Counted from the stretch's first letter, positions 34,184 to 47,241 are shown. The stretch: 64,000 nucleotides of DNA from Planctomycetota bacterium (GCA_027001995.1 JALTLO010000202.1:21102-85101), one strand, 5' to 3'. The notes: generated from the sequence alone by a model not told the origin. Numbers and translations: made by a program.

Positions 34184-34506
34184 GAGTCTTGGGTGATTCC
34201 GTTCTCTTGGGTGAGACGATTTTCTTCGTGGCAGGTGCAGGGTGTTGCCAAGCACTTGGGGCAGCCCTGGGCATACTTCTTGGCGGCCTGTTCCAGATCA
34301 ACATGAGTTAAGCTGGCCAAAGTGGAGAGCCAGGCAAAAACATCTGCGAACTCTTCTTCTAAGTTAGCACGATCGTTCCCTTTGATGGCTCGGGCGAGTT
34401 CACCCACTTCTTCCACGAACCAGACGAACGTTCCGGACACGCCGCGGCTGGAGTCCTTGACGAGATAGATGTCTTCGATTCTTTTTTGAAAATCGGAAAC
34501 TTTCAT
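34180..34506 (-). CDS. MazG-like nucleotide pyrophosphohydrolase
   Basis: EEVGELARA and EEEFADVFAW motifs; C-terminal CPKC..PCTC. Confidence 0.88.
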   Translation of the reverse strand: MKVSDFQKRIEDIYLVKDSSRGVSGTFVWFVEEVGELARAIKGNDRANLEEEFADVFAWLSTLASLTHVDLEQAAKKYAQGCPKCLATPCTCHEENRLTQENGITQDS

Positions 34507-36065
34507 GCGGTACGCCTCAGGCTGATAATGGTGATGTCAAACTCGCCTGGCTCTTCTGACAAGTTTGCGTCGATTTTGGCAGCTAACTTGGATGCCACTG
34601 CAATCTCGTCTGATTTCGCCACCGCCATGGTCGCTTTGAAGAATCGGGTTTCTCCTAACTCCTCGCCACTTTTGAGTTTCAATTGAGTTAGACCTGCGGC
34701 AGAAAGTAGGAGGAGATCGTCCTTCTTCAAGATGAATTCTTCCTCCTCCAAGCTGCGGTCGAAAACCGGCCCTTTGTCCAAGCCCATGGCGATCCCTGCC
34801 GGATGGTGGTTCATGAGTTCGCTGCTTTCGGCCAGCCACCTCAGTGTTGGCATCTTGTGGCCAGCGCAAGCGATCTTGACCTCATGGGTCTGGTGATCGT
34901 AGACAGCATAGATGGCGGTCACATACATGCCTCTTCGCAGATCGGGGGAGAAAAGAGCGTTCATGCGCTTGAGAGTTGCAGCGGGACTTGAGTTCTCTGG
35001 AGCGACGGCCCGAAAAGTCGAGCGGGCCATGGCCAAGATGACCGCTGCGGGGACTCCCCGGCCACTGGCAGAAAGAAGGAGCAGGCCGGTCTTCTCACCG
35101 GGTAGATCAATGAAGTCAAAGAGGTCGCTCGAAAGATCTCCTCCGGCTTCGAATACTGCGTCGACTTGAGAATTCGGAATCTGGGGCAAGGTTGAAGGGC
35201 AGAGCTTCTCTTGGATTTCTTGGGTGATTTGCTCTTGGTGTTCCTTATCTGATAAATCCGCCTTTAGGTCTTGGGCCTCTTCCAAGCCTTGAGTCATCTC
35301 ATCGATCGACTGAGCTAAGACGCCGATTTCGTCTCGCGAGTTGACCTGGCTTCGGTGGCTTAGGTTCCCTTTCGAGATGATTGCGATGTCATGGAGCAGG
35401 GTGTCTAAGGGCTTGGTCACACTCTTAGCAACAGCAAAGGAAACAAAAACTCCCACCAAGATTCCGATGATCGAAAAAAGGATGATGCTGGTGAGAAGAC
35501 TGTCCAACTCGGCTTCGAGACTTTCTTCCGAGATGAAGACCTCAACTGCTGCGATCGTCTGATTTCGATTCGTCGGCTTGACAATGGCGTGCCAGAACGA
35601 ACGAACTGGAATCTCTTTGTCCCGCGAGTTCATCAGCGTACCGCGCCGAATGCGTACGGCACCGACATTCTCTAATTCTTCATTGACCCGCAGTTTGAGT
35701 TCGTTGCGCCCGGTGGCACTGATAACGAAGTCGTATTTATTCTCGCCGTTGAGTTCGTAAATGGCGACTTCTTCAACATCGTCTGTCAGCAAATCCTGCA
35801 TTCGTTTGACGTTGTCTTTGTTGTGCCAGTCGGGAGCCGCCAAGGCCTTGGCAGAGAAAAGGCCAGCTGTGTTAATCTGAGCCTCCAAGGCTTCTCTTGA
35901 AGAGCCATAGAGGGAATATCCCAGAGCCAAGAGGAGGAGAGCAATCACCACACTGATGGGAATGGCGAATTTCAGCCCGAGCCCCAGCCCACGTTTTTTC
36001 TTATGGCTGTCATCATGTGAAACTCCTGTCGTATTCTCTCGGGAGCGTGCTTTTCGCTTTGGCAT
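34503..36065 (-). CDS. Membrane HAMP + SpoIIE/PP2C-like domain protein (probable pseudophosphatase)
   Basis: Two TM helices, HAMP (SRDEIGVLA), SpoIIE fold motifs (SGRGVPAA, GMYVT, AGH, DITII) with catalytic Asp substitutions. Confidence 0.85.
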   Translation of the reverse strand: MPKRKARSRENTTGVSHDDSHKKKRGLGLGLKFAIPISVVIALLLLALGYSLYGSSREALEAQINTAGLFSAKALAAPDWHNKDNVKRMQDLLTDDVEEVAIYELNGENKYDFVISATGRNELKLRVNEELENVGAVRIRRGTLMNSRDKEIPVRSFWHAIVKPTNRNQTIAAVEVFISEESLEAELDSLLTSIILFSIIGILVGVFVSFAVAKSVTKPLDTLLHDIAIISKGNLSHRSQVNSRDEIGVLAQSIDEMTQGLEEAQDLKADLSDKEHQEQITQEIQEKLCPSTLPQIPNSQVDAVFEAGGDLSSDLFDFIDLPGEKTGLLLLSASGRGVPAAVILAMARSTFRAVAPENSSPAATLKRMNALFSPDLRRGMYVTAIYAVYDHQTHEVKIACAGHKMPTLRWLAESSELMNHHPAGIAMGLDKGPVFDRSLEEEEFILKKDDLLLLSAAGLTQLKLKSGEELGETRFFKATMAVAKSDEIAVASKLAAKIDANLSEEPGEFDITIISLRRTA

Positions 36066-36077
36066 TTTCTCTCGGCC

Positions 36078-36524
36078 CTAATTTAAGACGGACTCGATTG
36101 CCCAACTCAAGATGAGAGCTAGGATCCCTGCTAGAACATCATCATAGACCACGCCATAACCATTCGTCCACTTTTCCACTCTTCGAATTGGTCCAGGTTT
36201 CCACATGTCGAATAAACGGAAGAGGAGGAAGCCCAAAAGGAGTGTGTGGGGACCAGCGGCAAAAGGCCGCCAGATCGCGATCCACAGGCCAGCCGCTTCA
36301 TCGTAGACGAAGTCCTGAGGATCTTTTCCTCCGGTCTTGGTCATGAAACGGCGAGCCAGGGGCGGACCTGTAAGGGTGGCGAATACGGCGAGGAAACCGA
36401 TGGATGTTGAGTAGAACTCGATGGGAATGAGGTAGGCGATCAGAAGAGCCACCATGGAACCACATGTTCCGGGCATGATTGGAGAGTTTCCTGAGCCAAA
36501 CATGGTCCCAATGAATCGTACCAT
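36078..36524 (-). CDS. pgpA: Phosphatidylglycerophosphatase A
   Basis: GSG..P..PGT.GS, DPQDFVYDE, FRLFDMWKPGPI, GVVYDDVLAG. Confidence 0.92.
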   Translation of the reverse strand: MVRFIGTMFGSGNSPIMPGTCGSMVALLIAYLIPIEFYSTSIGFLAVFATLTGPPLARRFMTKTGGKDPQDFVYDEAAGLWIAIWRPFAAGPHTLLLGFLLFRLFDMWKPGPIRRVEKWTNGYGVVYDDVLAGILALILSWAIESVLN

Positions 36525-36548
36525 CTGCCGTGTGCCTCTGAATAAGCG

Positions 36549-37157
36549 TCAAATATCGTTGGCACCAATATGTCGTGAAGCTTTCACGATATAGAGGCCG
36601 CCGGAGTAAATTGTCAGAAGGACGGTGATCCAGACCAGGGCATGGGAGGAGTAGTGGATCCATCCAGGAGTTTGGGGACTTGTGGCTACGACGCCGATCA
36701 AGAAACCGATCGCCAAGCTTTGAGCGACCATCTTAATTTTGCCGGCCATTTCGGCACCAAAATCGATCCCTTGGCTTTCCATATATCCGCGAATACCATT
36801 CACTAAGAACTCGCGAAAGAGGACAACAGCCACCATCCACGGGTGTAAATAGCTCGTGGTCTCAGGGATCGAAGCCAAGAATACCAAGCTACTGCAAATG
36901 ACAACTTTGTCTACGAATGGATCGGCGATCCTGCCAAAAGCGGTTACGGTGTTGTCCCGCCTGGCGATGTAACCGTCCAAGGCATCACTGGCTGTAGCGG
37001 CAATGAAGAAAAACAGAGCGATCCATGCAGCCTCACTTCGCCAACTATCCACCCAAAAGTCTTCTTGTATCAGCAAGAGGAAGGCGAAGGATACCATAGC
37101 GAGAAGCAGCCGGAACATGGTGACCCGGTTCGCCAAATTGAATTTGGGAATCAGCAC
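36549..37157 (-). CDS. pgsA: CDP-diacylglycerol--glycerol-3-phosphate 3-phosphatidyltransferase
   Basis: NLANRVTMFR, DALDGYIARR..T.FG...DP..DK CDP-alcohol motif, GKIKM. Confidence 0.92.
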   Translation of the reverse strand: MLIPKFNLANRVTMFRLLLAMVSFAFLLLIQEDFWVDSWRSEAAWIALFFFIAATASDALDGYIARRDNTVTAFGRIADPFVDKVVICSSLVFLASIPETTSYLHPWMVAVVLFREFLVNGIRGYMESQGIDFGAEMAGKIKMVAQSLAIGFLIGVVATSPQTPGWIHYSSHALVWITVLLTIYSGGLYIVKASRHIGANDI

Positions 37158-38485
37158 GTTCCACAGCCCTCACTCAGTTGACCGTAAAGATCGTAAGCTT
37201 CCGCTTTCTCCACCTTTACCTGGACGATATCACCAGCCTTCACCGCAGGGCCTTTGACGAAGACTTTTCCGTCGATTTCTGGGGCGTCTGACTTGCTCCT
37301 CCCAATGGATGTCTCGGAGCCTTCTCCTGGATCTTCGATCAAGACATCAATGGTTCGACCGACGAATCTTTGGTTTCTCTTCTTTGAGATTTCTTGTTGC
37401 AATGACATCAAGCGGTCTAAGCGCTCTTGTTTGAGCTCTGGTGAAACTTGGTCCGGCAAGTCGATTGCCGGGCTCCCTTCTTCTGGGGAGTACATGAAGG
37501 CCCCAAGGCGGTCAAACTGATGACGTTCAGCGAAAGAGAGTAGATGTTCGAAATCGGCGTCGGTCTCTCCGGGGAAGCCAACGATCATGGTCGTCCGGAG
37601 GGTCATATCAGGGTTCCTTGATCGTAGCTTGTCGACCATGGATTCCACGTCCTTCTCCCGAGTCTTGCGCTTCATCAGCTCCAACATGTGATTGGAGCTA
37701 TGCTGGAGTGGCACATCAATGTAAGGGAGGACTTTTCTTCCATTTGAAAGTAAAGTGGCTAGTTCGTCACTCACTTCAGTGGGGTAGGCGTAGAGCAGGC
37801 GAACCCAAGAAATCTCGTCTACTTTTTCTAAATTCTCGAGAAGTTCTACGATCCTGAAACGGCCGTAAAGGTCGACCCCATACATGGTGGAATCTTGGGC
37901 CACGACATTGATTTCTTTGGCGCCCATCTGTCCCAAACGTCGGGCTTTCTCGACCAGCTCTTCTAATGGAAAACTCTTGAGGCGACCGCGGATCTGGGGG
38001 ATGACGCAGAATGTGCAGGTGTGGTTGCAGCCTTCAGCGATCTTGAGATAAGAGAAGTGGGCCGGTGTCAGTCGGGCTTGAACATAGCGCCCAGGAGTCA
38101 CGAATCCGGGGGTAGTGACTTCGGCCTGAGGCAAGTATTCATTGACATAGTCGTTGATACGATTGTAGTCAGCGAAATCTATGAGGCGGTCGACCTCGGG
38201 CACCGCTGCAATGAGCTGCTCTTTGTAGTTGCCCACCATGCATCCGGTTACGAAGAGGGCCTTGAGGCCAGACTTCTTGAGGGCGGCAGCTTCCCGAATG
38301 GTCTGAATAGACTCTTCCCGAGCAGAGCCCAAGAAACCGCAGGTATTCACCACGACCACATCCGCCTCGGCTGGGTCGATCACGATCTCAGCATTATTAG
38401 TAATCAGATCGGAAACAAGTCCTTCTGAATCGACCAGATTCTTGGGGCACCCCAAGCTGATCAATGAGATCCTGCGGTTTCTCAA
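37151..38485 (-). CDS. rimO: Ribosomal protein S12 methylthiotransferase
   Basis: SLGCPKNLVDSE, VNTCGF, GCNHTCTFC, LLYAYP, DAPEIDG, TRAM domain. Confidence 0.95.
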   Translation of the reverse strand: MRNRRISLISLGCPKNLVDSEGLVSDLITNNAEIVIDPAEADVVVVNTCGFLGSAREESIQTIREAAALKKSGLKALFVTGCMVGNYKEQLIAAVPEVDRLIDFADYNRINDYVNEYLPQAEVTTPGFVTPGRYVQARLTPAHFSYLKIAEGCNHTCTFCVIPQIRGRLKSFPLEELVEKARRLGQMGAKEINVVAQDSTMYGVDLYGRFRIVELLENLEKVDEISWVRLLYAYPTEVSDELATLLSNGRKVLPYIDVPLQHSSNHMLELMKRKTREKDVESMVDKLRSRNPDMTLRTTMIVGFPGETDADFEHLLSFAERHQFDRLGAFMYSPEEGSPAIDLPDQVSPELKQERLDRLMSLQQEISKKRNQRFVGRTIDVLIEDPGEGSETSIGRSKSDAPEIDGKVFVKGPAVKAGDIVQVKVEKAEAYDLYGQLSEGCGTC

Positions 38486-38491
38486 CTTTGG

Positions 38492-40936
38492 CTATATCCT
38501 GCCGGCTTGCCAATCGTCATGATCGACAAGAATCTCGTGACTTCCGCTGCCTGAATAGGGTCCTACTAAACCCTCGGATTCCATGCGTTCAATAATGGCA
38601 GCGGCCTGGGCAAAGTCTACGCGCAGATTTCGTTGTAGAAAAGAGATCCGGCAAGTGTCTTGCTCAAGGCAAAGGGATACCGCCTCCTGATAGAAGGTTT
38701 CCGCTAAGGCGTCAAAAGGGGATTCTGGGGCACCAGCTTGAACCGGGGCGGGCATTTCTTCCGTCAGGGGAGCTTCGAAAGGAGCCGATTCTCCTACCGC
38801 ATCAGGAGTTAGGGAACTTTCAGATTCTGAGCCAGACTCTTGGTCGCCTTCAGAAGGGCTATTGGCTATTTCTCCAATCTCCGATTTTTCCAGGGCCTTT
38901 TTCGTTTCTTCGGCTTCGATTATTCCCAGTAAATTCTCATCTTCTGGGAGGAATTCTTCGTCGAAGGGGTCGCTCTCTTCGACCTGGGCAAAAGCGTCGT
39001 CAATGGAACCTCCAGAGAATTGCTCTTCATCTTCAATGAATTCTCCAGCTTCATCCTCCCTTTTGGAAACCTGCGATTCGGCCTCCACCTTCTCAACCTC
39101 CATCACCGAGTCCTGTTTGACTTCTTCCAAGGCTGCGGGGCGAGGTGGTGCGGAGTCTTCCCCCCATGGGGCCCAATCATCATCAAGCTCCCTGACTTCC
39201 CCTTTGGTGGGGGCTGGGATGCTTGGGGTTTCGGCCGTGATCGAAGCCGGTGCCGCATAGCGAGCCAAGTCTAGGGCTGAGCTTTCTTCTTCTTCGGCGG
39301 CGGGGTCAAGAACGTCGATCTGGTCTATGGCGCCCCATTCCATGTCGTCATTTTCGTGACTAAAGAGCAGTTGTTGGAATTCGACTTCTTCTGGTTCGTC
39401 CACGAGTTCACCTTCAATGTTGTCCATTTCGTCGTCATGGAATGCTCTTGGGGGAGCGGTTTCGTAGTCAATCTCTTCTAAGTCTGATGCTTCATCATAG
39501 GCGTCGGCTTCGATGACTTTGTTTTCATAGTCTTGAACTTCGTAGACCGGATTCTCTTCTTCTTCGAAGAGTTCATCTAAGTCGGAATCCAAGAGTGCTT
39601 GGGTGTCGGGGCCAAAGCTCTCAATGTTAGAATTCGAGGCCGCGAGTTCTTCCTCTTCTTCCAGTTCTTCGAGCTCTTCGAATTCTTGCCCCAACGAGGA
39701 ATCTTCTTCCTCAAGTTCGACGATGGAAGCCTCCAAATCAGTTTCATCTTCTCCATCATCATCTTCGAATTCTAACTCTTCCGTGTCTTCTTCTAAGAAG
39801 TCTTCTTCTTCGAATTCTGCAACGGCTTCCTCTTCTTCCTGTTCTGCGTTTTCATCCACAGGTTCAAGCACTTCGCCAAAGAGATCAAAGTCATTTTCTG
39901 CAGAAATCGGCTGTGACCAATCTAACTGAGGAATACCGTCATCTTCTTCTCGTTCTTCGTCTACAGCTTCCTCGTGCTGGGGCCTGCTTGTTTCGGGTTC
40001 GTCAAAAGTCAGCTCTTGATTCGTGGAATCATGGGGTTCTGCCAACTCCTGGGCTTCTCTGTCGGGGAGTTGAGTGGGGACTATGCTTTCGACCGAGTCT
40101 TTTGAAGTTGTCGCACCCACACCATCGTCCTCTCTTGGGGAGGGAGCTTCTGCGTCGATGGAAACGTCCGTGATTGCATTCTCAGTCTCCAAAGGGTCCA
40201 GGTCATCGAGAATGGTCCCATCGCTTCCCAAGGAAGAGATCGGTGTGCTGAGTTCTAAACGGCCGTCTTCTGAGTCAAGAGAAATGGGGTTGCCCAAGTC
40301 AAAAGCGGGTCTCTCCAGGGTGGTTGTTCGTCGCGATGAAGATTTGAGCTCCTGGACGTGAGTGTTTTCAGATTCCTCTGACTCTCCGCCGATGCCTAAT
40401 GCGAAAGCTGGTGCGGCGGGCTGATTGCTCAGGAGTCTGCGTACTTCCTCGAAGAAGAACCAATCTCTGGCCATGTAGGCACCAAACACCACAAGAGTCG
40501 CAGCCACAAAGTAGGCCAGTGTCTGAGGGAGTGCAAACTGGAATGCGTCACGAAGCATTTCTCCAAACTGTCCACCCCAAATAGAACCGTTTCCTTCGAT
40601 CAGAGCCACCAGGCTTGACAGGGCTAAGATTAGCAGGGGGAGCCCCACCGCCCTTCGAGGAAGATCGTTAAGAGTGTGCTTCATCCACAAAACCAATGCC
40701 ATGCCACTCAGACATGCAGTGGCTAAGTAGGCTCCTAAGAGACCAAATGCCCGGGCTGGAATCAGGGCTAAATTGAGCACTGTGCTTTCGTGGGGCAATG
40801 TCATGGCAGCGCCACCTTCCCGCAAATGGGTGGCGATCAGGAAGATCATATATGTGATGCACAGGCCAAAACCTGCCAAGGTAGTCCATTCCGATGCAGC
40901 TGCTGACTTCTTGTCGTTGTCTTCAGGGCTCGTCAT
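38492..40936 (-). CDS. FtsK-like protein lacking the ATPase motor (TM domain + acidic IDR + gamma domain)
   Basis: N-terminal TM region with WGGQFG motif resembling FtsK 4TM; about 570 aa of D/E-rich low-complexity sequence; C-terminal YQEAV...ISFLQRNL...MESEGLVGP gamma winged helix; no Walker motifs. Confidence 0.82.
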   Translation of the reverse strand: MTSPEDNDKKSAAASEWTTLAGFGLCITYMIFLIATHLREGGAAMTLPHESTVLNLALIPARAFGLLGAYLATACLSGMALVLWMKHTLNDLPRRAVGLPLLILALSSLVALIEGNGSIWGGQFGEMLRDAFQFALPQTLAYFVAATLVVFGAYMARDWFFFEEVRRLLSNQPAAPAFALGIGGESEESENTHVQELKSSSRRTTTLERPAFDLGNPISLDSEDGRLELSTPISSLGSDGTILDDLDPLETENAITDVSIDAEAPSPREDDGVGATTSKDSVESIVPTQLPDREAQELAEPHDSTNQELTFDEPETSRPQHEEAVDEEREEDDGIPQLDWSQPISAENDFDLFGEVLEPVDENAEQEEEEAVAEFEEEDFLEEDTEELEFEDDDGEDETDLEASIVELEEEDSSLGQEFEELEELEEEEELAASNSNIESFGPDTQALLDSDLDELFEEEENPVYEVQDYENKVIEADAYDEASDLEEIDYETAPPRAFHDDEMDNIEGELVDEPEEVEFQQLLFSHENDDMEWGAIDQIDVLDPAAEEEESSALDLARYAAPASITAETPSIPAPTKGEVRELDDDWAPWGEDSAPPRPAALEEVKQDSVMEVEKVEAESQVSKREDEAGEFIEDEEQFSGGSIDDAFAQVEESDPFDEEFLPEDENLLGIIEAEETKKALEKSEIGEIANSPSEGDQESGSESESSLTPDAVGESAPFEAPLTEEMPAPVQAGAPESPFDALAETFYQEAVSLCLEQDTCRISFLQRNLRVDFAQAAAIIERMESEGLVGPYSGSGSHEILVDHDDWQAGRI

Positions 40937-40968
40937 GATTTAGTCTCCTCAAAACGCCTACTTCGTTA

Positions 40969-43470
40969 CTAGGCCGTCTGTTGCTTTTCCCAATCTTCCA
41001 GCGTCAACATCACTTCACGAGCTTTACTGCCTTTGAAGTTGCCAACGATGCCATCTTCAGCCATGAAATCCACTAAGCGCGCGGCTCTGGTATAGCCAAC
41101 ACCTAATTTTCGCTGAAGCATGGAGACCGAACCTCTTTGGCTGGCCAAAACGGCTCGAACCGCATCATTGTAAAGGGCATCGCGATCTTGAAAACCTTCT
41201 TCCGACTTCTCTGACGAGGTCGGGACTTGGGTGAGTTCGCGACTGTATTCTGGTTGCGCCACGTCTTTGATGTAGCGCACAATGGATTTGATTTCTTCGT
41301 CACTGACCAAGGCAGCTTGACAGCGGATTGGACCACCACCAGAACGAGGAGACATGAACAACATGTCACCACGGCCCAGGAGACGTTCGGCTCCCATGGC
41401 ATCAAGAATTGTCCGAGAGTCAATCTTACTGGCTGTTCTGAATGACAAACGGGAGGGCATGTTGGACTTAATGAGGCCAGTGATAACATCGACACTTGAC
41501 CGTTGAGTCGCCAAAATGACATGCACACCAACAGCCCGAGACTTCTGGGCCAAACGACAAATACTCTGCTCAACTTCCTTGGCAGAGGTCATCATCAGGT
41601 CAGCCAGCTCATCGACAATCAAAACAACATAGGGCAGATGCTTCTGCATCGTTTCTATTTCTTCGATGGTATAGTGTTCGGCCAATCGTTCTTCGACCTC
41701 TTCTTGGCCAAGGCTATTGAAGCCCTTGATGTCACGGACACCGACGGCGGAAAGAAGTTCGTAACGATGTTCCATTTCATTGACGGCCCACTCCAAGATT
41801 TTCGGTGCCTTACGCATGTCTGTGACAACAGGTGTGAGCAGATGGGGTACGTCGCGGAAAGCTTGTAATTCGACCATCTTAGGGTCGATTAGGATGAGAC
41901 GAACTTCTTCGGGATACTTTGTCAGAAGCAGACTAGCAATAATGGTGTTGATACAGACCGATTTGCCCGCCCCGGTTTGGCCAGCGATCAGCAAATGGGG
42001 CATGGAGGTGAGATCTTCGATCAAAGCATTGCCAGAGGCATCCATGCCTAAGAGCAGAGGGATATTGAAGTGCTTTTTTTGCAGTACTTCGCTGCAGGCA
42101 AGTGTCTTCAGGAAGACCGTTTCGCGGATGTCGTTCGGTACCTCAATACCCACCGCAGCCTTCCCTGGAATGGGTGCGACGATGCGAATTGTCTTGGCTT
42201 TAAGAGCCAAAGAAATGTCATCGGGGAGGGAGGTGATTCGCTTGACCTTGGTGCCGGCTGCCAATTCAAGTTCGTAAACGGTGATGGTCGGACCACGGGA
42301 TATTTCGACCACTTGGGCGGTGATCCCAAAGGTCTCCAAAGTCTCTTCCAATTTTCGTGCTTTTCGCCGGATTTCCCCATCTCTCTCCTCCACATCCCGA
42401 ACAATCGGGTCTTCAAGGAGGCTCAAAGGAGGCAAGACATAAGTTTCCTTACCTTGGAGATGTTTTTCTCGAGATAGCTTGAGGATTTCAACGCCCTCAG
42501 ACGCTGTGCTCACACCTCCCCTTCGGATGATGGGATCGCTTCGTGGAGCGGGGGCGACTTCCTCATCGTCTTCCAGCCACGCGTCTTCTGGTTCTGGAGC
42601 TTCGCTGGCGTCTTCCAAAAGTAGAGATGAATCATCTTCTTCATCTAAGTCCGCGTCGAACATGAAGTCGTCTGTGGGCTCCATGATGCCTGTTTCGTCT
42701 TCTATCTCGTATTCCACCTCTTCCTCTTCTGCTTCTTCTGCGGCATCACTGAGAGCTTCCTCTTCGTCGTCCTCAGCCGCGATGTCGTCTTCTTCCTCCA
42801 GTTCCTCCAAGACGACGGCTTTCTTCTTGGCCGCTTTTTTCTTGGCAGTTTTCTTCTTGGACTTTTTCTTCTTGGATTTGGGGGTCTTGATCTCCACCCC
42901 AGCTCCGTCTCCAGGGACAAAGGCGAAAGTCGGGAGCTTCCATTTGGCCAAAGAGCCTTGGAAAAACTCGGGGATGCCCAAGGCTATGTCGACGAGAAAT
43001 CGATCCGTGGCAAGGATCAGGCTCGACGTGCCAAGGAGAAGGAGGATCAAAGTGGCGCCGATTCCGCCGAACCAATGGATGAGCATGGCTGCTCCTTGAT
43101 CCCCGGCAATACCACCAAAAGGATAGGGACTGTTGCCGTACCCAGCGGTGGGATCCAGAGCTTGTACCATAGTCGACAAAACAATGGTAAACACAACGGC
43201 CCCCACGCATTTGATGAGAGGGGAGGTGATGGGCCTGGAGACAAGGATGGAGTAGCCAATAAACATGCAGAAGAAGGAAAGCGCGAAAGCCCCTGCGCCG
43301 AATGTCTTAAGGAGCGCAGCCGCAATGAATTTGCCGAAAGCTCCGCACAGATTGGCAGCTCCATTCAGTTCGCTCGTCGGCGTGATGCCGTCGAAGGAAA
43401 CAAAACTGACTGACAGAAACAGCGCCAAAGCAAAAAATGCGGCGGCTGTCAGTCCTCTTTTTGCGGCCAT
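40969..43470 (-). CDS. ftsK: DNA translocase FtsK
   Basis: TM domain, RIVAPIPGK, PHLLIAGQTGAGKS, IDPK, IVDELADLM, ATQR, GAERLLGRGDML, gamma SVSMLQRKLGVGYTRAARL; GGAGG SD before ATG 43470. Confidence 0.96.
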   Translation of the reverse strand: MAAKRGLTAAAFFALALFLSVSFVSFDGITPTSELNGAANLCGAFGKFIAAALLKTFGAGAFALSFFCMFIGYSILVSRPITSPLIKCVGAVVFTIVLSTMVQALDPTAGYGNSPYPFGGIAGDQGAAMLIHWFGGIGATLILLLLGTSSLILATDRFLVDIALGIPEFFQGSLAKWKLPTFAFVPGDGAGVEIKTPKSKKKKSKKKTAKKKAAKKKAVVLEELEEEDDIAAEDDEEEALSDAAEEAEEEEVEYEIEDETGIMEPTDDFMFDADLDEEDDSSLLLEDASEAPEPEDAWLEDDEEVAPAPRSDPIIRRGGVSTASEGVEILKLSREKHLQGKETYVLPPLSLLEDPIVRDVEERDGEIRRKARKLEETLETFGITAQVVEISRGPTITVYELELAAGTKVKRITSLPDDISLALKAKTIRIVAPIPGKAAVGIEVPNDIRETVFLKTLACSEVLQKKHFNIPLLLGMDASGNALIEDLTSMPHLLIAGQTGAGKSVCINTIIASLLLTKYPEEVRLILIDPKMVELQAFRDVPHLLTPVVTDMRKAPKILEWAVNEMEHRYELLSAVGVRDIKGFNSLGQEEVEERLAEHYTIEEIETMQKHLPYVVLIVDELADLMMTSAKEVEQSICRLAQKSRAVGVHVILATQRSSVDVITGLIKSNMPSRLSFRTASKIDSRTILDAMGAERLLGRGDMLFMSPRSGGGPIRCQAALVSDEEIKSIVRYIKDVAQPEYSRELTQVPTSSEKSEEGFQDRDALYNDAVRAVLASQRGSVSMLQRKLGVGYTRAARLVDFMAEDGIVGNFKGSKAREVMLTLEDWEKQQTA

Positions 43471-43599: not shown

Positions 43600-44097
43600 T
43601 CAGACACCGGTGTGCCCAAACCCGCCACTACCCCGTTGCGTTGCGGGTAGCGTGTCTACTTCACGAAACTGTGCGTGGTAGACCGGTGCAAAGACAAGTT
43701 GTGCGATACGTTCCCCTCGACGAATGAGGAAAGGCTCATTCGCAAGAGTTGTCATGATGACGCCGATCTCTCCACGGTAGTCAGCATCAATGGTGCCCGG
43801 TGCGTTGACCAAGGTGATACCATGCTTTAGCGCCAAACCACTTCGGGCCCGAACTTGAGCCTCTGTGCCGAAGGGCAGGGCGATTGAAATCCCTGTAGGA
43901 ACTAAGGTGATCTCACCTGCTTTAAGGGTTATTGGCTCTATATTAGCGGCCCGAAGGTCAACACCACTTGACCCAGGGGTGGCGTAAGCGGGGTAGGGAA
44001 GGTCTGCCGCTTGGGCAGACTTCCTGATTTGCACTTCGACTTGATGGGGGCCAGGTGCTTCCTGCTTGGCCTTCGCTGAGATGGGATCTTCGTTCAT
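43600..44097 (-). CDS. dut: dUTP diphosphatase
   Basis: [39 protein letters not shown]. Confidence 0.95.
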
Positions 44098-44166
44098 GAT
44101 GGGGCCGATAATACAGACAGGAGGAGACGTTTTTGACAGGCCTATCCGATTCTCAAAGCCCGTTTT

Positions 44167-44787
44167 CTACCTGCGGTGGAGAGCTTCCGCTTCTTGGACC
44201 AAGATGCGTCCCAGTGCGTCTTTTGACGCTCTTTGGACTTCGCCGATGCTTTGGGCGGTGACCAAACGGAAAGAGGATTCATGGGATCCGAAGTTGGCGG
44301 GGCCATTGAGGACGATGATGTCGGCGCTCTTGCGCTTGAGTTTGCTGATGGCATTCACTTCCGCATTTTGGACTTCCAGAGCAAAGCCGATGAGGATTTG
44401 ATGGCCTTTGGCTTCACCCATGTCAGCAAGGATGTCCCGGGTGCGAGTCAACGGCAACATGAGGTCACCAGGGGATTTCTTCATTTTGCCAACTGTCGGG
44501 GATGCCGGGGTGTAGTCGGCAACAGCGGCGGTCATGAACACGGCGTCTACATCGGGGAAGATCTCAAGGCATGCTTGGTGCATATCTGCAGCCGAGATCA
44601 CAGAGCGAAATTCGATGTCATGAGGGGGCGACAGGTTTACCGGGCCCGATACAAGAGTCACTGCGTGTCCCAGGTCTCGGGCAGCTTGGGCCACAGCATA
44701 TCCAGTTTTTCCTGAGGACAAGTTGGACAAGAACCGCACGTCGTCCAGCATTTCCCGGGTTGGTCCAGCAGTCACCAAGACCTTCAT
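44167..44787 (-). CDS. coaB: Phosphopantothenate--cysteine ligase (standalone CoaB)
   Basis: VLVTAGPTRE.LDDVRFLSNLSSGK, AAVADY, GFALE. Confidence 0.92.
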   Translation of the reverse strand: MKVLVTAGPTREMLDDVRFLSNLSSGKTGYAVAQAARDLGHAVTLVSGPVNLSPPHDIEFRSVISAADMHQACLEIFPDVDAVFMTAAVADYTPASPTVGKMKKSPGDLMLPLTRTRDILADMGEAKGHQILIGFALEVQNAEVNAISKLKRKSADIIVLNGPANFGSHESSFRLVTAQSIGEVQRASKDALGRILVQEAEALHRR

Positions 44788-45320
44788 GGCCGCAGTTTGT
44801 CCACAGCTCCAAGTATGTCGCTCACCTCAGCCAATCTTCCTGGCCCAGATTCTCCACAAGCAAGCTCGCCCACTGTGGGGGGGATCATTTGCCAGCCCTG
44901 CTGTTCTAAACGGGCGCAATTCTCTTGGACTACAGAGTTGGCCCACATCCGCCAATTCATCGCTGGGGCAAAGAGTCTGGGGCCAGTAAATGCGAATGCT
45001 GTGGTCAGAACGACATTGTCGACGATTCCGTGGGCCAATTTGGCGATGGTGCAGGCGGTGGCTGGTGCTAAGAGCATGAGATCTCCATCCTGCGCCAAGC
45101 GAATGTGATCGTGGTCCATGTCAGGACTGATTTGCCACATGTCGTGGTAGACGGTCTCTAAGCTCATAGCTTGGAATGCCACTGGGGAAATCAGTTTTTG
45201 GGATTCAGGGGTCATAAGCACCGAAACACGGTCGCCCTTCTTGCGTAGGGCGGAAGTGATGTCGAGGGCACGATGGAGGGCGATGGATGCGCTCACTCCC
45301 AATATGATCTGCCTACTCAT
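44784..45320 (-). CDS. coaC: Phosphopantothenoylcysteine decarboxylase (standalone CoaC flavoprotein)
   Basis: LGVSASIA, HIRLA, APATA, PAMN..MW, GELACGESGPGRL; ATGA overlap with coaB. Confidence 0.9.
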   Translation of the reverse strand: MSRQIILGVSASIALHRALDITSALRKKGDRVSVLMTPESQKLISPVAFQAMSLETVYHDMWQISPDMDHDHIRLAQDGDLMLLAPATACTIAKLAHGIVDNVVLTTAFAFTGPRLFAPAMNWRMWANSVVQENCARLEQQGWQMIPPTVGELACGESGPGRLAEVSDILGAVDKLRP

Positions 45321-45344
45321 GTGTTCTTCCCGGGTCGGGTTTGG

Positions 45345-45439
45345 AGCCTGGTTATTCTTAACGTTCCTGTCCTTCCCATGTTTCCAGGGCAACTGGCACG
45401 GTGCTAAGGAGTTGGTGGGCTGTTAAGAATAACCAGGCT
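45345..45439. repeat. Perfect 18-bp inverted repeat enclosing a 59-nt structured core
   Basis: AGCCTGGTTATTCTTAAC (45345-45362) and GTTAAGAATAACCAGGCT (45422-45439) in the rpoZ-coaC intergenic region. Confidence 0.9.
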
Positions 45440-45444
45440 TCGTC

Positions 45445-45789
45445 TTAGGAGCTGCGTTCTCTTGCCAAGGCCGACATAATACGGCGTTCGAGCTCGTCTT
45501 CTGCTGACGTGTCCGTTGGCACTTCTGCCTGAGGAACTTGGGGTTGAGGGTTGAGCCGCTCGATTTCTTGGCGCATCGCTTCCCGGTTTTCTTCCGTGTC
45601 AGCAATCAACTCAATCTTACCTTGCTCAATTTCTTCAACAGCAACATCTATGGGGTTCTTGAATTTGCCTTCAACGAGACGCTTGGCTCCCCGATTGAGC
45701 TCGCGAATTCGTTTCTGGATCAGAACGGTTGTCCGAAAAACGCCGCCAACTTTTTCGTAGAGACCTTCCAGCCTGCCTTGGTCAATCAT
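45445..45789 (-). CDS. rpoZ: RNA polymerase omega subunit
   Basis: KVGGVFRTTVLIQKRIREL..GA...V...NPIDVAVEEIEQGKI; position after gmk. Confidence 0.88.
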   Translation of the reverse strand: MIDQGRLEGLYEKVGGVFRTTVLIQKRIRELNRGAKRLVEGKFKNPIDVAVEEIEQGKIELIADTEENREAMRQEIERLNPQPQVPQAEVPTDTSAEDELERRIMSALARERSS

Positions 45790-45808
45790 GCCGGTTTCCT
45801 CATTTCTG

Positions 45809-46384
45809 CTAATCGAGTTTCTCGGCCAAAGTGGCTGAGAGAATCTCTTTTATGGTCTGAGTCGCAATCGCGAGGTCATCATTGACGACCGCGTGATCAT
45901 ATTTGTCTTTCTTTGAGAGCTCCCAACGGGCTGTTTCCAACCTGCGCTCGAGTTCATCTTCGCTTTCGCTTCCACGAGAGCGCAATCTTTCTTCCAGCAC
46001 TTCGAAGCGCAAAGGCTCCACGAAGATGCTGGTCATTTCAATGGATGTATCTAAGTCCAAGAAACCTTGGACATCGATATCCAAAACCACGACGCGCCCC
46101 ATGTCTGTGAGCTTGTCTACTTCTGTTCTCAGCGTTCCGTAGCGGTGCTCCTTGTGTACCGTTGCGAACTCCAAGAATTCTCCATTGGCGATCTTGGCAT
46201 CGAATTCCGCTTCCGAAAGAAAATGGTAGTCGATTCCATTTTTTTCCCCATCCCGTGGCGGGCGAGTCGTCGCTGAAACACTCAAGGCAAACCGTTCGTC
46301 CTGGAGGAGTTCCCTGATGATGGTGCTCTTGCCAACACCCGAAGGACCTGAAAGGACGGTTAAGATACCTGTGTGTTTTGCCAT
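45809..46384 (-). CDS. gmk: Guanylate kinase
   Basis: SGPSGVGKS, SVSATTRPPRDGE..G.DYHF, YGT, LDIDVQG. Confidence 0.96.
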   Translation of the reverse strand: MAKHTGILTVLSGPSGVGKSTIIRELLQDERFALSVSATTRPPRDGEKNGIDYHFLSEAEFDAKIANGEFLEFATVHKEHRYGTLRTEVDKLTDMGRVVVLDIDVQGFLDLDTSIEMTSIFVEPLRFEVLEERLRSRGSESEDELERRLETARWELSKKDKYDHAVVNDDLAIATQTIKEILSATLAEKLD

Positions 46385-46389
46385 CTTCC

Positions 46390-47241
46390 CTATTCGATGT
46401 TGTGCGATTGCTCACGCAAGCGCTCTAAATCTGTCTTGACCTCGATGACGCAGCGAGCGATTTCACTGTCAGATGCCTTCGAGGCTACCGTGTTTGTTTC
46501 CCGCAGCATTTCCTGAAGGAGGAAATCGAGCTTGCGACCAATCTCTTGACCTTGCAGAAGTTCGTCGAACTGCTCTAAGTGGCTTTCCAAGCGCTGTAGC
46601 TCTTCTGAAATATCTGCCTTGTCGGCGAACAAAGCGACATCTCGCAAGAATTCTTTGTCATACACAGCTACCTTCTTTAGTTTTTCGCCATACTCTTCCA
46701 CCACCCCGGGGGCCCGCGATTTGATCGTTTCGACTTGGACGCGAATCCTGGCGGCGATTGCGCGAAGCTCTTCAGCGAGTTTTTCGCCTTCAAACCTTCG
46801 CATATCCGACAACCCTTTGAGGGCCTCGTTGACCCCAGACAAAATGGCCGCCTTGCGTTCAGTCCCAACACTGTCCGAATTCTCCCCTGGACGTACCACC
46901 CCAGGAAGGGAGAACAATGTTTCGATGGACAGGGACTTGTCTTCTAAGCCCAAGTCGGTCGCGAGCTTCTCAGCTTCGGCACTGAGTTGGCGAGCCAAAG
47001 TGTGATCAACAGTGACCGCTCTTTCATCTGACAATTCTTCATTGCGAATGGTGACGTTGATCGATCCCCTGATGAGGACTTTCTTGATCTGCCCTTCGAT
47101 TTCCGGCTCCAAGCGCGAAAGATCTCGGGGCAAACGAATTTGCAGTTTTAAGAACCTGTGGTTCACCGAACGGACTTCGACCTCGAGGGTGCGCTTATCA
47201 TCCGCAGTCTGGAACCGACCAAATCCTGTCATACTTTGCAC
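46390..47241 (-). CDS. yicC: YicC/YloC family endoribonuclease
   Basis: SMTGFG, SVNHRFL, DISEELQRLESH, GRKLDFLLQEMLRETNTVASK, REQSHNIE. Confidence 0.93.
   Translation of the reverse strand: MQSMTGFGRFQTADDKRTLEVEVRSVNHRFLKLQIRLPRDLSRLEPEIEGQIKKVLIRGSINVTIRNEELSDERAVTVDHTLARQLSAEAEKLATDLGLEDKSLSIETLFSLPGVVRPGENSDSVGTERKAAILSGVNEALKGLSDMRRFEGEKLAEELRAIAARIRVQVETIKSRAPGVVEEYGEKLKKVAVYDKEFLRDVALFADKADISEELQRLESHLEQFDELLQGQEIGRKLDFLLQEMLRETNTVASKASDSEIARCVIEVKTDLERLREQSHNIE

Follow-up and report, generated by a model that had tools for sequence, protein, structure and literature searches.

Analysis of a 64,000-nucleotide stretch of a Planctomycetota bacterium genome (GCA_027001995.1 JALTLO010000202.1:21102-85101; hereafter the window) showed that the gene directly downstream of canonical ftsK codes for an FtsK paralog without the translocase motor. 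The predicted protein of 814 amino acids (aa) carries an FtsK-type membrane domain of four hydrophobic segments (4TM) at the N-terminus and an FtsK gamma winged helix at the C-terminus, joined by a long acidic linker. Because the motor is absent, its sequence places the paralog outside the FtsK translocases, as a motor-less variant of the FtsK family, possibly with a new function. The paralog probably has a function, as a non-catalytic accessory to division or segregation that depends on FtsK.

The two genes lie in tandem on the minus strand, separated by 32 bp. The gap, the paralog's own AGGAG Shine-Dalgarno sequence and the intact open reading frame (ORF) described in the initial annotation, which was made from the sequence alone, were all confirmed. 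A scan for promoters and terminators between the genes showed nothing informative. Canonical FtsK matched FtsK_4TM, alpha, FtsK_SpoIIIE and gamma, all above the Pfam cut-offs. The paralog matched FtsK_gamma (PF09397) alone (residues 747-804, E 2.9e-16) and gave no Pfam match to PF01580 or PF17854, the alpha/beta ATPase. The expected pattern of FtsK_4TM and FtsK_gamma without FtsK_SpoIIIE was therefore seen for gamma and the motor, and not for FtsK_4TM, which stayed under the cut-off for this protein alone (E 0.066). A tblastn search with the FtsK motor found a single matching place in the whole 5.2-Mb assembly, so that no motor is concealed in another frame of the paralog, a possibility that had been raised at the outset. 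A P-loop-like string occurred in just 2 of 58 paralog ORFs.

The likeness of the N-terminus to FtsK, first noticed by eye, was recovered by profiles and not by pairwise comparison. The local score of 33 between the N-termini of the paralog and canonical FtsK was matched by 1046 of 2000 shuffles and was not significant, while hhalign joined the two families at Prob 97.5, E 6.2e-12 (23 vs 23 rows) and at 99.2, E 2.6e-19 (42 vs 42 rows). Homolog N-termini matched FtsK_4TM (PF13491) at E<=0.1 in 12 of 23 cases, the best at 5.7e-14. An AlphaFold model of the paralog 4TM (predicted local distance difference test, pLDDT, 78.7) was helical throughout, and a fold search of this model against the PDB gave no match at E<=0.001. 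As a lead for motor-less FtsK-type anchors elsewhere and nothing further, rank 4 in the ESM Atlas was a cluster of 483-aa proteins, commonest in Bacillota, of which 34% carried FtsK_4TM (score 0.80).

The C-terminal domain was recognised clearly, the paralog family profile matching PDB 2ve8 at E 1.9e-18. Positions were numbered on E. coli FtsK through the PDB chain and the peptide 1289-1297 given in the available text of PMC5052618. Four residues of the recognition helix were nearly constant in 71 canonical gamma domains and mostly replaced in 53 paralogs: G1294 (70 vs 17), Y1295 (69 vs 18, with F in 24), R1297 (68 vs 12) and R1300 (65 vs 12), the last being described as a KOPS (FtsK-orienting polar sequence) recognition residue (PMC2680272). 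In the window paralog these positions are D, F, Q and A, so that the reported change from GYTRAAR to DFAQAAA is real and the KOPS-reading residues are absent; N1296 is also lost, while Q1288 and R1289 are kept. The sequences thus indicate that the KOPS-reading residues are mostly lost across the paralogs, with 15 of 53 retaining at least 3 of the 4 helix residues. Other positions were largely kept, namely Q1288 (69/71 canonical vs 48/53 paralogs), R1289 (66/71 vs 42/53, with K in 8 more), A1298 (67/71 vs 48/53) and the wing residue R1320 (64/71 vs 42/53). The wing change from SKARE to SGSHE was likewise seen here; as a family feature it does not hold, since the loss of the arginine is mostly local. 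The gamma segment has a net charge of -2 in the window paralog and +4 in canonical FtsK. Across 130 homologs of one family gamma hardly varies and its helix begins with acidic D-F-D; on its sequence it is a conserved surface that is not of the KOPS type. A large subfamily (such as P0110 and P0121; L171, L173 and L181) has the wing cut back or unalignable, with a gap at R1320 in 44 of 116 representatives.

These counts bear on the idea that gamma is a direct DNA anchor or Xer regulator, binding a new DNA sequence, or binding XerD and so switching dimer resolution on or off with no translocation involved. It would be served by the retention of Q1288, R1289 and R1320, by the minority that keeps the helix, and by the presence of two XerC/XerD-like genes in the genome (L191, L192; G000:C170, C88), both just below the XerD cut-off. 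Q1288 and R1289 are described as the main XerD contacts, touching XerD E184 (PMC5052618). The XerD-like protein that was aligned has QQ at E. coli E183/E184, though the canonical gamma of the same genome retains R1289, and the kept Q1288/R1289 are therefore no evidence of XerD activation. With the four helix residues mostly gone, the charge reversed and the D-F-D start conserved in one family, we consider this explanation rather improbable.

The paralog was found widely in the phylum. Of the 23 class genomes (G000-G022), 22 had the paralog; the remaining one (G005, 88% complete) had no ftsK match of any kind, and its locus was probably not assembled. When gamma matches were counted by eye, 76 of 251 phylum genomes had two or more, and 66 of these 76 fell in 17 families holding 69 sampled genomes; the three single-match genomes of these families also showed the paralog on closer inspection. 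The 17 families were chosen by the feature, so the figures show clustering and not a rate. Among 56 genomes examined with the paralog, it lay right after ftsK in 49, was cut off by a contig break in 4 and was unlinked in 3, and rimO, pgsA or pgpA lay within the fetched locus in 38, counts that are biased because loci were fetched mainly for a second gamma match. The place after ftsK, part of the ftsK-paralog-rimO order that was to be sought in relatives, is conserved. In three non-carriers ftsK adjoined rimO with nothing between.

The N-terminal profile, run against 1.84 billion representatives, gave 652 matches. Of the best 150 of these, 149 were classified: 117 had the membrane domain and gamma without a motor, 30 had no gamma (many of them short fragments) and 2 had a motor. 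Named homologs carried the labels Planctomycetota, Planctomycetes or Planctomycetia, and of at least 600 matches listed for the paralog gamma, the best was 78% identical and labelled Planctomycetota. In the gamma-alignment search of named genomes, the matches listed were mostly from other phyla (35-53% identity) and were probably canonical FtsKs, as judged from two loci checked. The whole-protein search of named genomes returned 128 pattern matches, none confirmed, and no cultured strain was among the named matches of the homolog searches and cluster look-up. Planctomycetota clusters in the ESM Atlas that are called hypothetical protein and carry FtsK_gamma only belong to the same family as the paralog. 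Database names for the family were hypothetical protein, "DNA translocase FtsK", "FtsK/SpoIIIE-like" and "Ftsk gamma domain", none of those shown marking a separate motor-less family. Titles and abstract openings of the papers listed by literature searches yielded no description of a motor-less FtsK paralog, though a gene table may mention one; the main text of bioRxiv 817700, as available, does not mention FtsK.

The copies appear, from their sequences, to share one origin. In a FastTree phylogeny of 4TM and gamma (111 rows), all 43 paralogs formed one clade (0.977), with subgroups partly mirroring those of the canonical gene. In an IQ-TREE subset, 14 of 15 paralogs grouped (89/84) and one long branch strayed; with all 15 forced together, the tree was 5.6 log-likelihood units better (p-AU 0.57, approximately unbiased test). 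The trees fit one duplication and do not prove a clade. Ratios of non-synonymous to synonymous differences (pN/pS) against two same-genus genomes were 0.46-0.49 in the linker but 0.25-0.29 in 4TM and 0.21-0.24 in gamma, with rimO at 0.16-0.21 and canonical gamma at 0.01-0.05 as comparators, all of them rough since synonymous sites are near saturation. The check on selection that had been suggested thus gave values for the membrane and gamma ends like those of rimO, and the ratios indicate that both ends are under purifying selection.

A decaying duplicate or an assembly artefact is, on these results, hardly credible. The linker of one same-genus copy (G001) is interrupted by an in-frame TAA, either a recent lesion or an assembly error, and two further copies are in pieces (G214, and G013 where an N gap falls). 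Set against them are the 56 carriers of 17 families, in 40 of which a single complete ORF showed both ends, together with purifying selection at both ends and the single motor in the genome. The same record contradicts neutral decay and a lack of orthologs, either of which would have spoken against the initial annotation, and upholds its dedicated, conserved, non-translocating FtsK paralog.

Apart from two short motifs, the linker is not conserved. Paralog residues 166-740 (575 aa) contained 32.5% D/E and 4.3% K/R, and residues 341-470 contained 45% D/E with no K or R. A single-sequence model of the full-length protein, which without an alignment is weak support for disorder, gave coil with pLDDT <50 over 225-737 (mean pLDDT 40.8). 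In the 40 complete paralogs the linkers measured 205-780 aa (median 411) with 9-56% D/E, and 38 were net acidic, the exceptions being two f28 members. The canonical linkers of carriers had a median of 157 aa and a similar median D/E (0.23), making the paralog linker about 2.6 times longer. The linker of canonical FtsK in the window (42450-42975, minus strand) is rich in lysine at residues 166-225 (28% K/R) and then acidic at residues 226-340 (41% D/E), and the paralog has no such lysine-rich block. Since acidity is common to the canonical linker, the paralog has an expanded linker and not a replacement domain: the stretch of about 570 D/E-rich residues and the loss of the motor stood as first described, and replacement of the one by the other did not.

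An acidic DNA mimic or electrostatic brush, which would sequester DNA-binding proteins or keep the nucleoid off the division site, had also been suggested. Net acidity in nearly all complete linkers and the stretch free of K and R agree with it. The wide variation in length and acidity, the two f28 members and the similar D/E content of canonical linkers make the idea weak, and we regard it as quite improbable. In known DNA mimics the carboxylates are spaced out on a folded protein.

Two short linker motifs, which the initial annotation had missed, are the best functional clue that the sequences offer. The pattern Q-x-x-[LM]-F was found in 21 of 56 locus linkers (200 shuffles: mean 0.7, maximum 3), in 64 of 116 representative homologs (mean 1.0, maximum 4) and in 50 of 130 further homologs (mean 1.5, maximum 6), three sets that overlap and include kin, compared with 1 of 66 linkers of canonical FtsK. 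Paralog linkers showed no enrichment of the control spacing QxxxLF. A Q three residues ahead of LF was present in 26-39% of cases against a background of 2-3%, and Q-x-x-L-F was under-represented in the 3557 ORFs of the genome (211 vs 301-323 in shuffles). The position of the motif differs by lineage, often just before gamma, as in family f47 where it immediately precedes the domain; in the window paralog it is QQLLF. W-x-x-W occurred in 20 of 56 linkers (1.3 in shuffles), one being a membrane-edge artefact; the 19 genuine acidic cases belong to families f1-f4 and make up 19 of 22 class members.

Q-x-x-L-F resembles the beta-clamp binding motif, a pentapeptide in an exposed region with the consensus QL[S/D]LF or Q-aliphatic-x-[LM]-[FL], position 2 being aliphatic in the revised form given in the available part of bioRxiv 2025.08.20.671105. 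All five carrier genomes checked had DnaN, and in all five the motif was present in the main DnaE (QFSLF, QLGLF, QISLF, QKMLF, QANLF) and in MutS (QRELF, QLNLF, QLDLF, QLGLF, QLSLF). Position 2 was K, R, A or F in four of these ten native motifs, and three second DnaE copies lacked the motif. Presence of the motif also went with the state of gamma: it was found in 1 of 15 paralogs retaining at least 3 of the 4 helix residues against 19 of 38 having lost them, and in 3 of 24 helix-keeping against 61 of 92 helix-losing representatives, a pattern that rests on few independent lineages.

We propose that an ancient tandem ftsK duplicate lost the alpha/beta ATPase and may have become a non-catalytic membrane-to-chromosome tether working with FtsK. 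Homology and gene order suggest that it would be co-expressed with ftsK and reach the same membrane site through its FtsK-type 4TM. The acidic linker would act as a long, flexible leash with no affinity for DNA, and Q-x-x-L-F would dock in the pocket of the sliding clamp DnaN that receives peptides, which could hold replisomes or clamp-loaded new DNA near the FtsK site. In motif-bearing lineages gamma would be mainly a protein-binding surface, and the motif-less lineages, which more often keep the helix, may hold DNA directly via gamma. That the paralog is a non-catalytic FtsK partner tethering clamp-bearing DNA to the membrane has, in our judgement, nearly an even chance of being right. We advance only tentatively the fuller account, in which an FtsK duplicate swapped its motor for a leash with a clamp motif, and would couple the replisome or clamp-marked new DNA to the FtsK membrane site as a component of FtsZ-independent division or segregation in many Planctomycetota families.

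Several points weigh against such a tether, besides the rough pN/pS ratios, the biased synteny count and the few lineages behind the link between motif and helix. Where the revised consensus calls for an aliphatic residue, at position 2, the paralog motif mostly has P, Q, S or G. A peptide of QALRF, a RecB candidate with a weaker consensus match, did not bind the clamp in the work reported in bioRxiv 2025.08.20.671105. Of the 56 locus linkers, 35 lack the motif, among them all examined members of f6, f25, f36, f37, f46, f55, f73, f76, f78 and f87 and two members of the window's own family, so that it cannot be the universal function of the family. No tested gene (ftsZ, rodZ-type helix-turn-helix or mreB) co-varied with the paralog.

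A divisome scaffold or FtsK assembly regulator, whose 4TM would co-oligomerise with FtsK or recruit division proteins while its linker motifs have binding partners other than the clamp, was also weighed. The 4TM is retained in all complete members with its glycines invariant, and QxxLF is absent from many families. The available texts describe E. coli FtsK N-domains that hexamerise without the motor (PMC3870252), FtsK nucleating the divisome in FtsZ-less Chlamydia (PMC11975371) and ftsK as the only essential gene of the division and cell wall (dcw) cluster in Planctopirus (PMC12283558). The paralog 4TM has, however, diverged further than its canonical counterpart (mean column identity 24% vs 34%), and a scaffold alone leaves unexplained both the selection on gamma at the end of a 200-800 aa leash and the motif spacing that matches native DnaE and MutS. 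A complex prediction of the paralog 4TM with the FtsK 4TM (42-row alignments each) scored 0.00 in a run whose controls did not fold, and speaks neither for nor against such contact. A scaffold is compatible with a tether and does not exclude it; as the explanation of the paralog we consider it unlikely.

The suggested link to the absence of FtsZ or RodZ was not supported. A match to ftsZ above the cut-off was found in 0 of 61 genomes and a RodZ-type helix-turn-helix in 1 of 64, in carriers and non-carriers alike, and mreB was matched in 64 of 64. Pfam HTH_25 (PF13413), the RodZ domain, had no match in this genome or in the paralog. Given the lack of co-variation, the paralog is not a specific substitute for ftsZ, rodZ or mreB. 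One genome with a single gamma match (G034:C123:1032-1979) had an FtsZ/tubulin-like match at E 4.7e-59, below the ftsZ cut-off.

Comparison with known systems set the paralog apart from each. With the FtsK/SpoIIIE translocases it shares a homologous 4TM and a C-terminal gamma joined by a probably disordered linker, and the adjacent gene is its evident parent; it differs in having no alpha/beta ATPase, in having mostly lost the KOPS-reading helix, and in the longer linker (median 411 vs 157 aa) that carries QxxLF and WxxW. RodZ is a membrane-anchored helix-turn-helix protein that binds MreB and is associated with the slot between ftsK and rimO-pgsA. The paralog resembles it in having a membrane anchor and a cytoplasmic helix-turn-helix and in sitting in that slot; unlike RodZ, it is derived from FtsK, has four helices and carries a gamma-type winged helix at the C-terminus. 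A precedent for clamp binding is CrfC of E. coli, described as a clamp-binding factor of nucleoid partition and positioning (PMC6374313). The likeness claimed is one of proposed working principle only, a clamp motif letting a positioning protein hold clamp-loaded new DNA. CrfC itself is a dynamin-like GTPase with the motif QLALP and, according to the available part of that paper, no typical membrane-binding motif.

Other gamma-bearing proteins were met during the survey. Second gamma matches outside the 17 families, where resolved, were other proteins: Fic (G010, G126), an adenylylsulphate kinase (APS-kinase) fusion (G144), short stand-alone ORFs (G035, G048) and a contig-end copy (G109); further second matches were in G071, G082, G095, G192 and G209. 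In G144 the kinase carries a C-terminal gamma-like helix-turn-helix (L186:1637-2491), and in G035 two short gamma-like ORFs stand directly downstream of ftsK (L053:6682-7458), apparently distinct from the paralog family. The only FtsK found in G059 (89% complete; L067:5068-6909) has 613 aa, a degenerate motor without Walker A and an altered gamma helix, and occupies the slot before rimO; it could be an intermediate of motor loss, and the tree gave it no settled position. In G030 (9.3 Mb, a single contig) there was no FtsK_gamma match and just a weak partial FtsK match, which makes it a possible Planctomycetota lineage without canonical FtsK.

The features of the locus are shown in Table 1. Downstream, a membrane HAMP-SpoIIE protein accompanies the paralog in many loci and resembles a pseudo-phosphatase, the aspartate of what we take to be the DVSGHG-type motif being present in 3 of 26 aligned copies and that of the presumed TDG-type motif in 5 of 26.

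Table 1. Features of the ftsK-paralog locus, with positions counted from the first letter of the window
Feature	Position	Strand	Basis
FtsK paralog of 814 aa without motor (4TM, acidic linker, gamma), intact ORF	38492..40936	-	ORF call, Pfam, composition
AGGAG, Shine-Dalgarno-like, paralog's own, 8 nt ahead of ATG	40945..40949	-	Read off the sequence
Paralog FtsK-type membrane domain, residues 1-171, four hydrophobic segments, G65/G122/G125 invariant	40424..40936	-	Hydropathy, alignments, hhalign, AlphaFold model
Paralog linker, acidic, probably disordered, residues 171-740	38717..40426	-	Composition; single-sequence model
QQLLF, residues 521-525, Q-x-x-L-F resembling beta-clamp binding motif	39362..39376	-	Enrichment; native DnaE/MutS motifs
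WAPW, residues 588-591, class-conserved acidic W-x-x-W	39164..39175	-	Shuffle enrichment
Paralog winged helix of FtsK gamma type (residues 747-804) with altered recognition helix	38525..38698	-	Pfam; PDB matches 2ve8, 2j5p, 5dcf; position counts
Canonical ftsK, 833 aa from ATG, Walker A GQTGAGKS, GYTRAAR helix intact	40969..43470	-	Pfam, sequence
rimO (name presumed from domain architecture), 6 bp downstream of paralog	37151..38485	-	Pfam UPF0004, radical SAM and TRAM
pgsA-like and pgpA genes, conserved downstream neighbours	36078..37157	-	Pfam, relatives' loci
Membrane HAMP-SpoIIE protein, degenerate phosphatase motifs, conserved neighbour	34503..36065	-	Pfam, alignment
Upstream block yicC-gmk-rpoZ-coaC-coaB-dut (all names but dut presumed), conserved in relatives	43600..47241	-	dut by Pfam

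For the biology of the phylum, these results mean that some database entries named FtsK in Planctomycetota genomes are not translocases. FtsK is described as the one conserved essential division gene known in Planctomycetota (PMC12283558 and PMC12288469, as far as their available texts go). How these bacteria divide without FtsZ is an open question, and a motor-less FtsK in at least 17 families is a concrete candidate for a part in it. If the proposal is true, the paralog would be a membrane-embedded clamp partner, a combination that we did not find described, and if the clamp link holds, it would provide a direct membrane-to-replisome connection made from a division protein.

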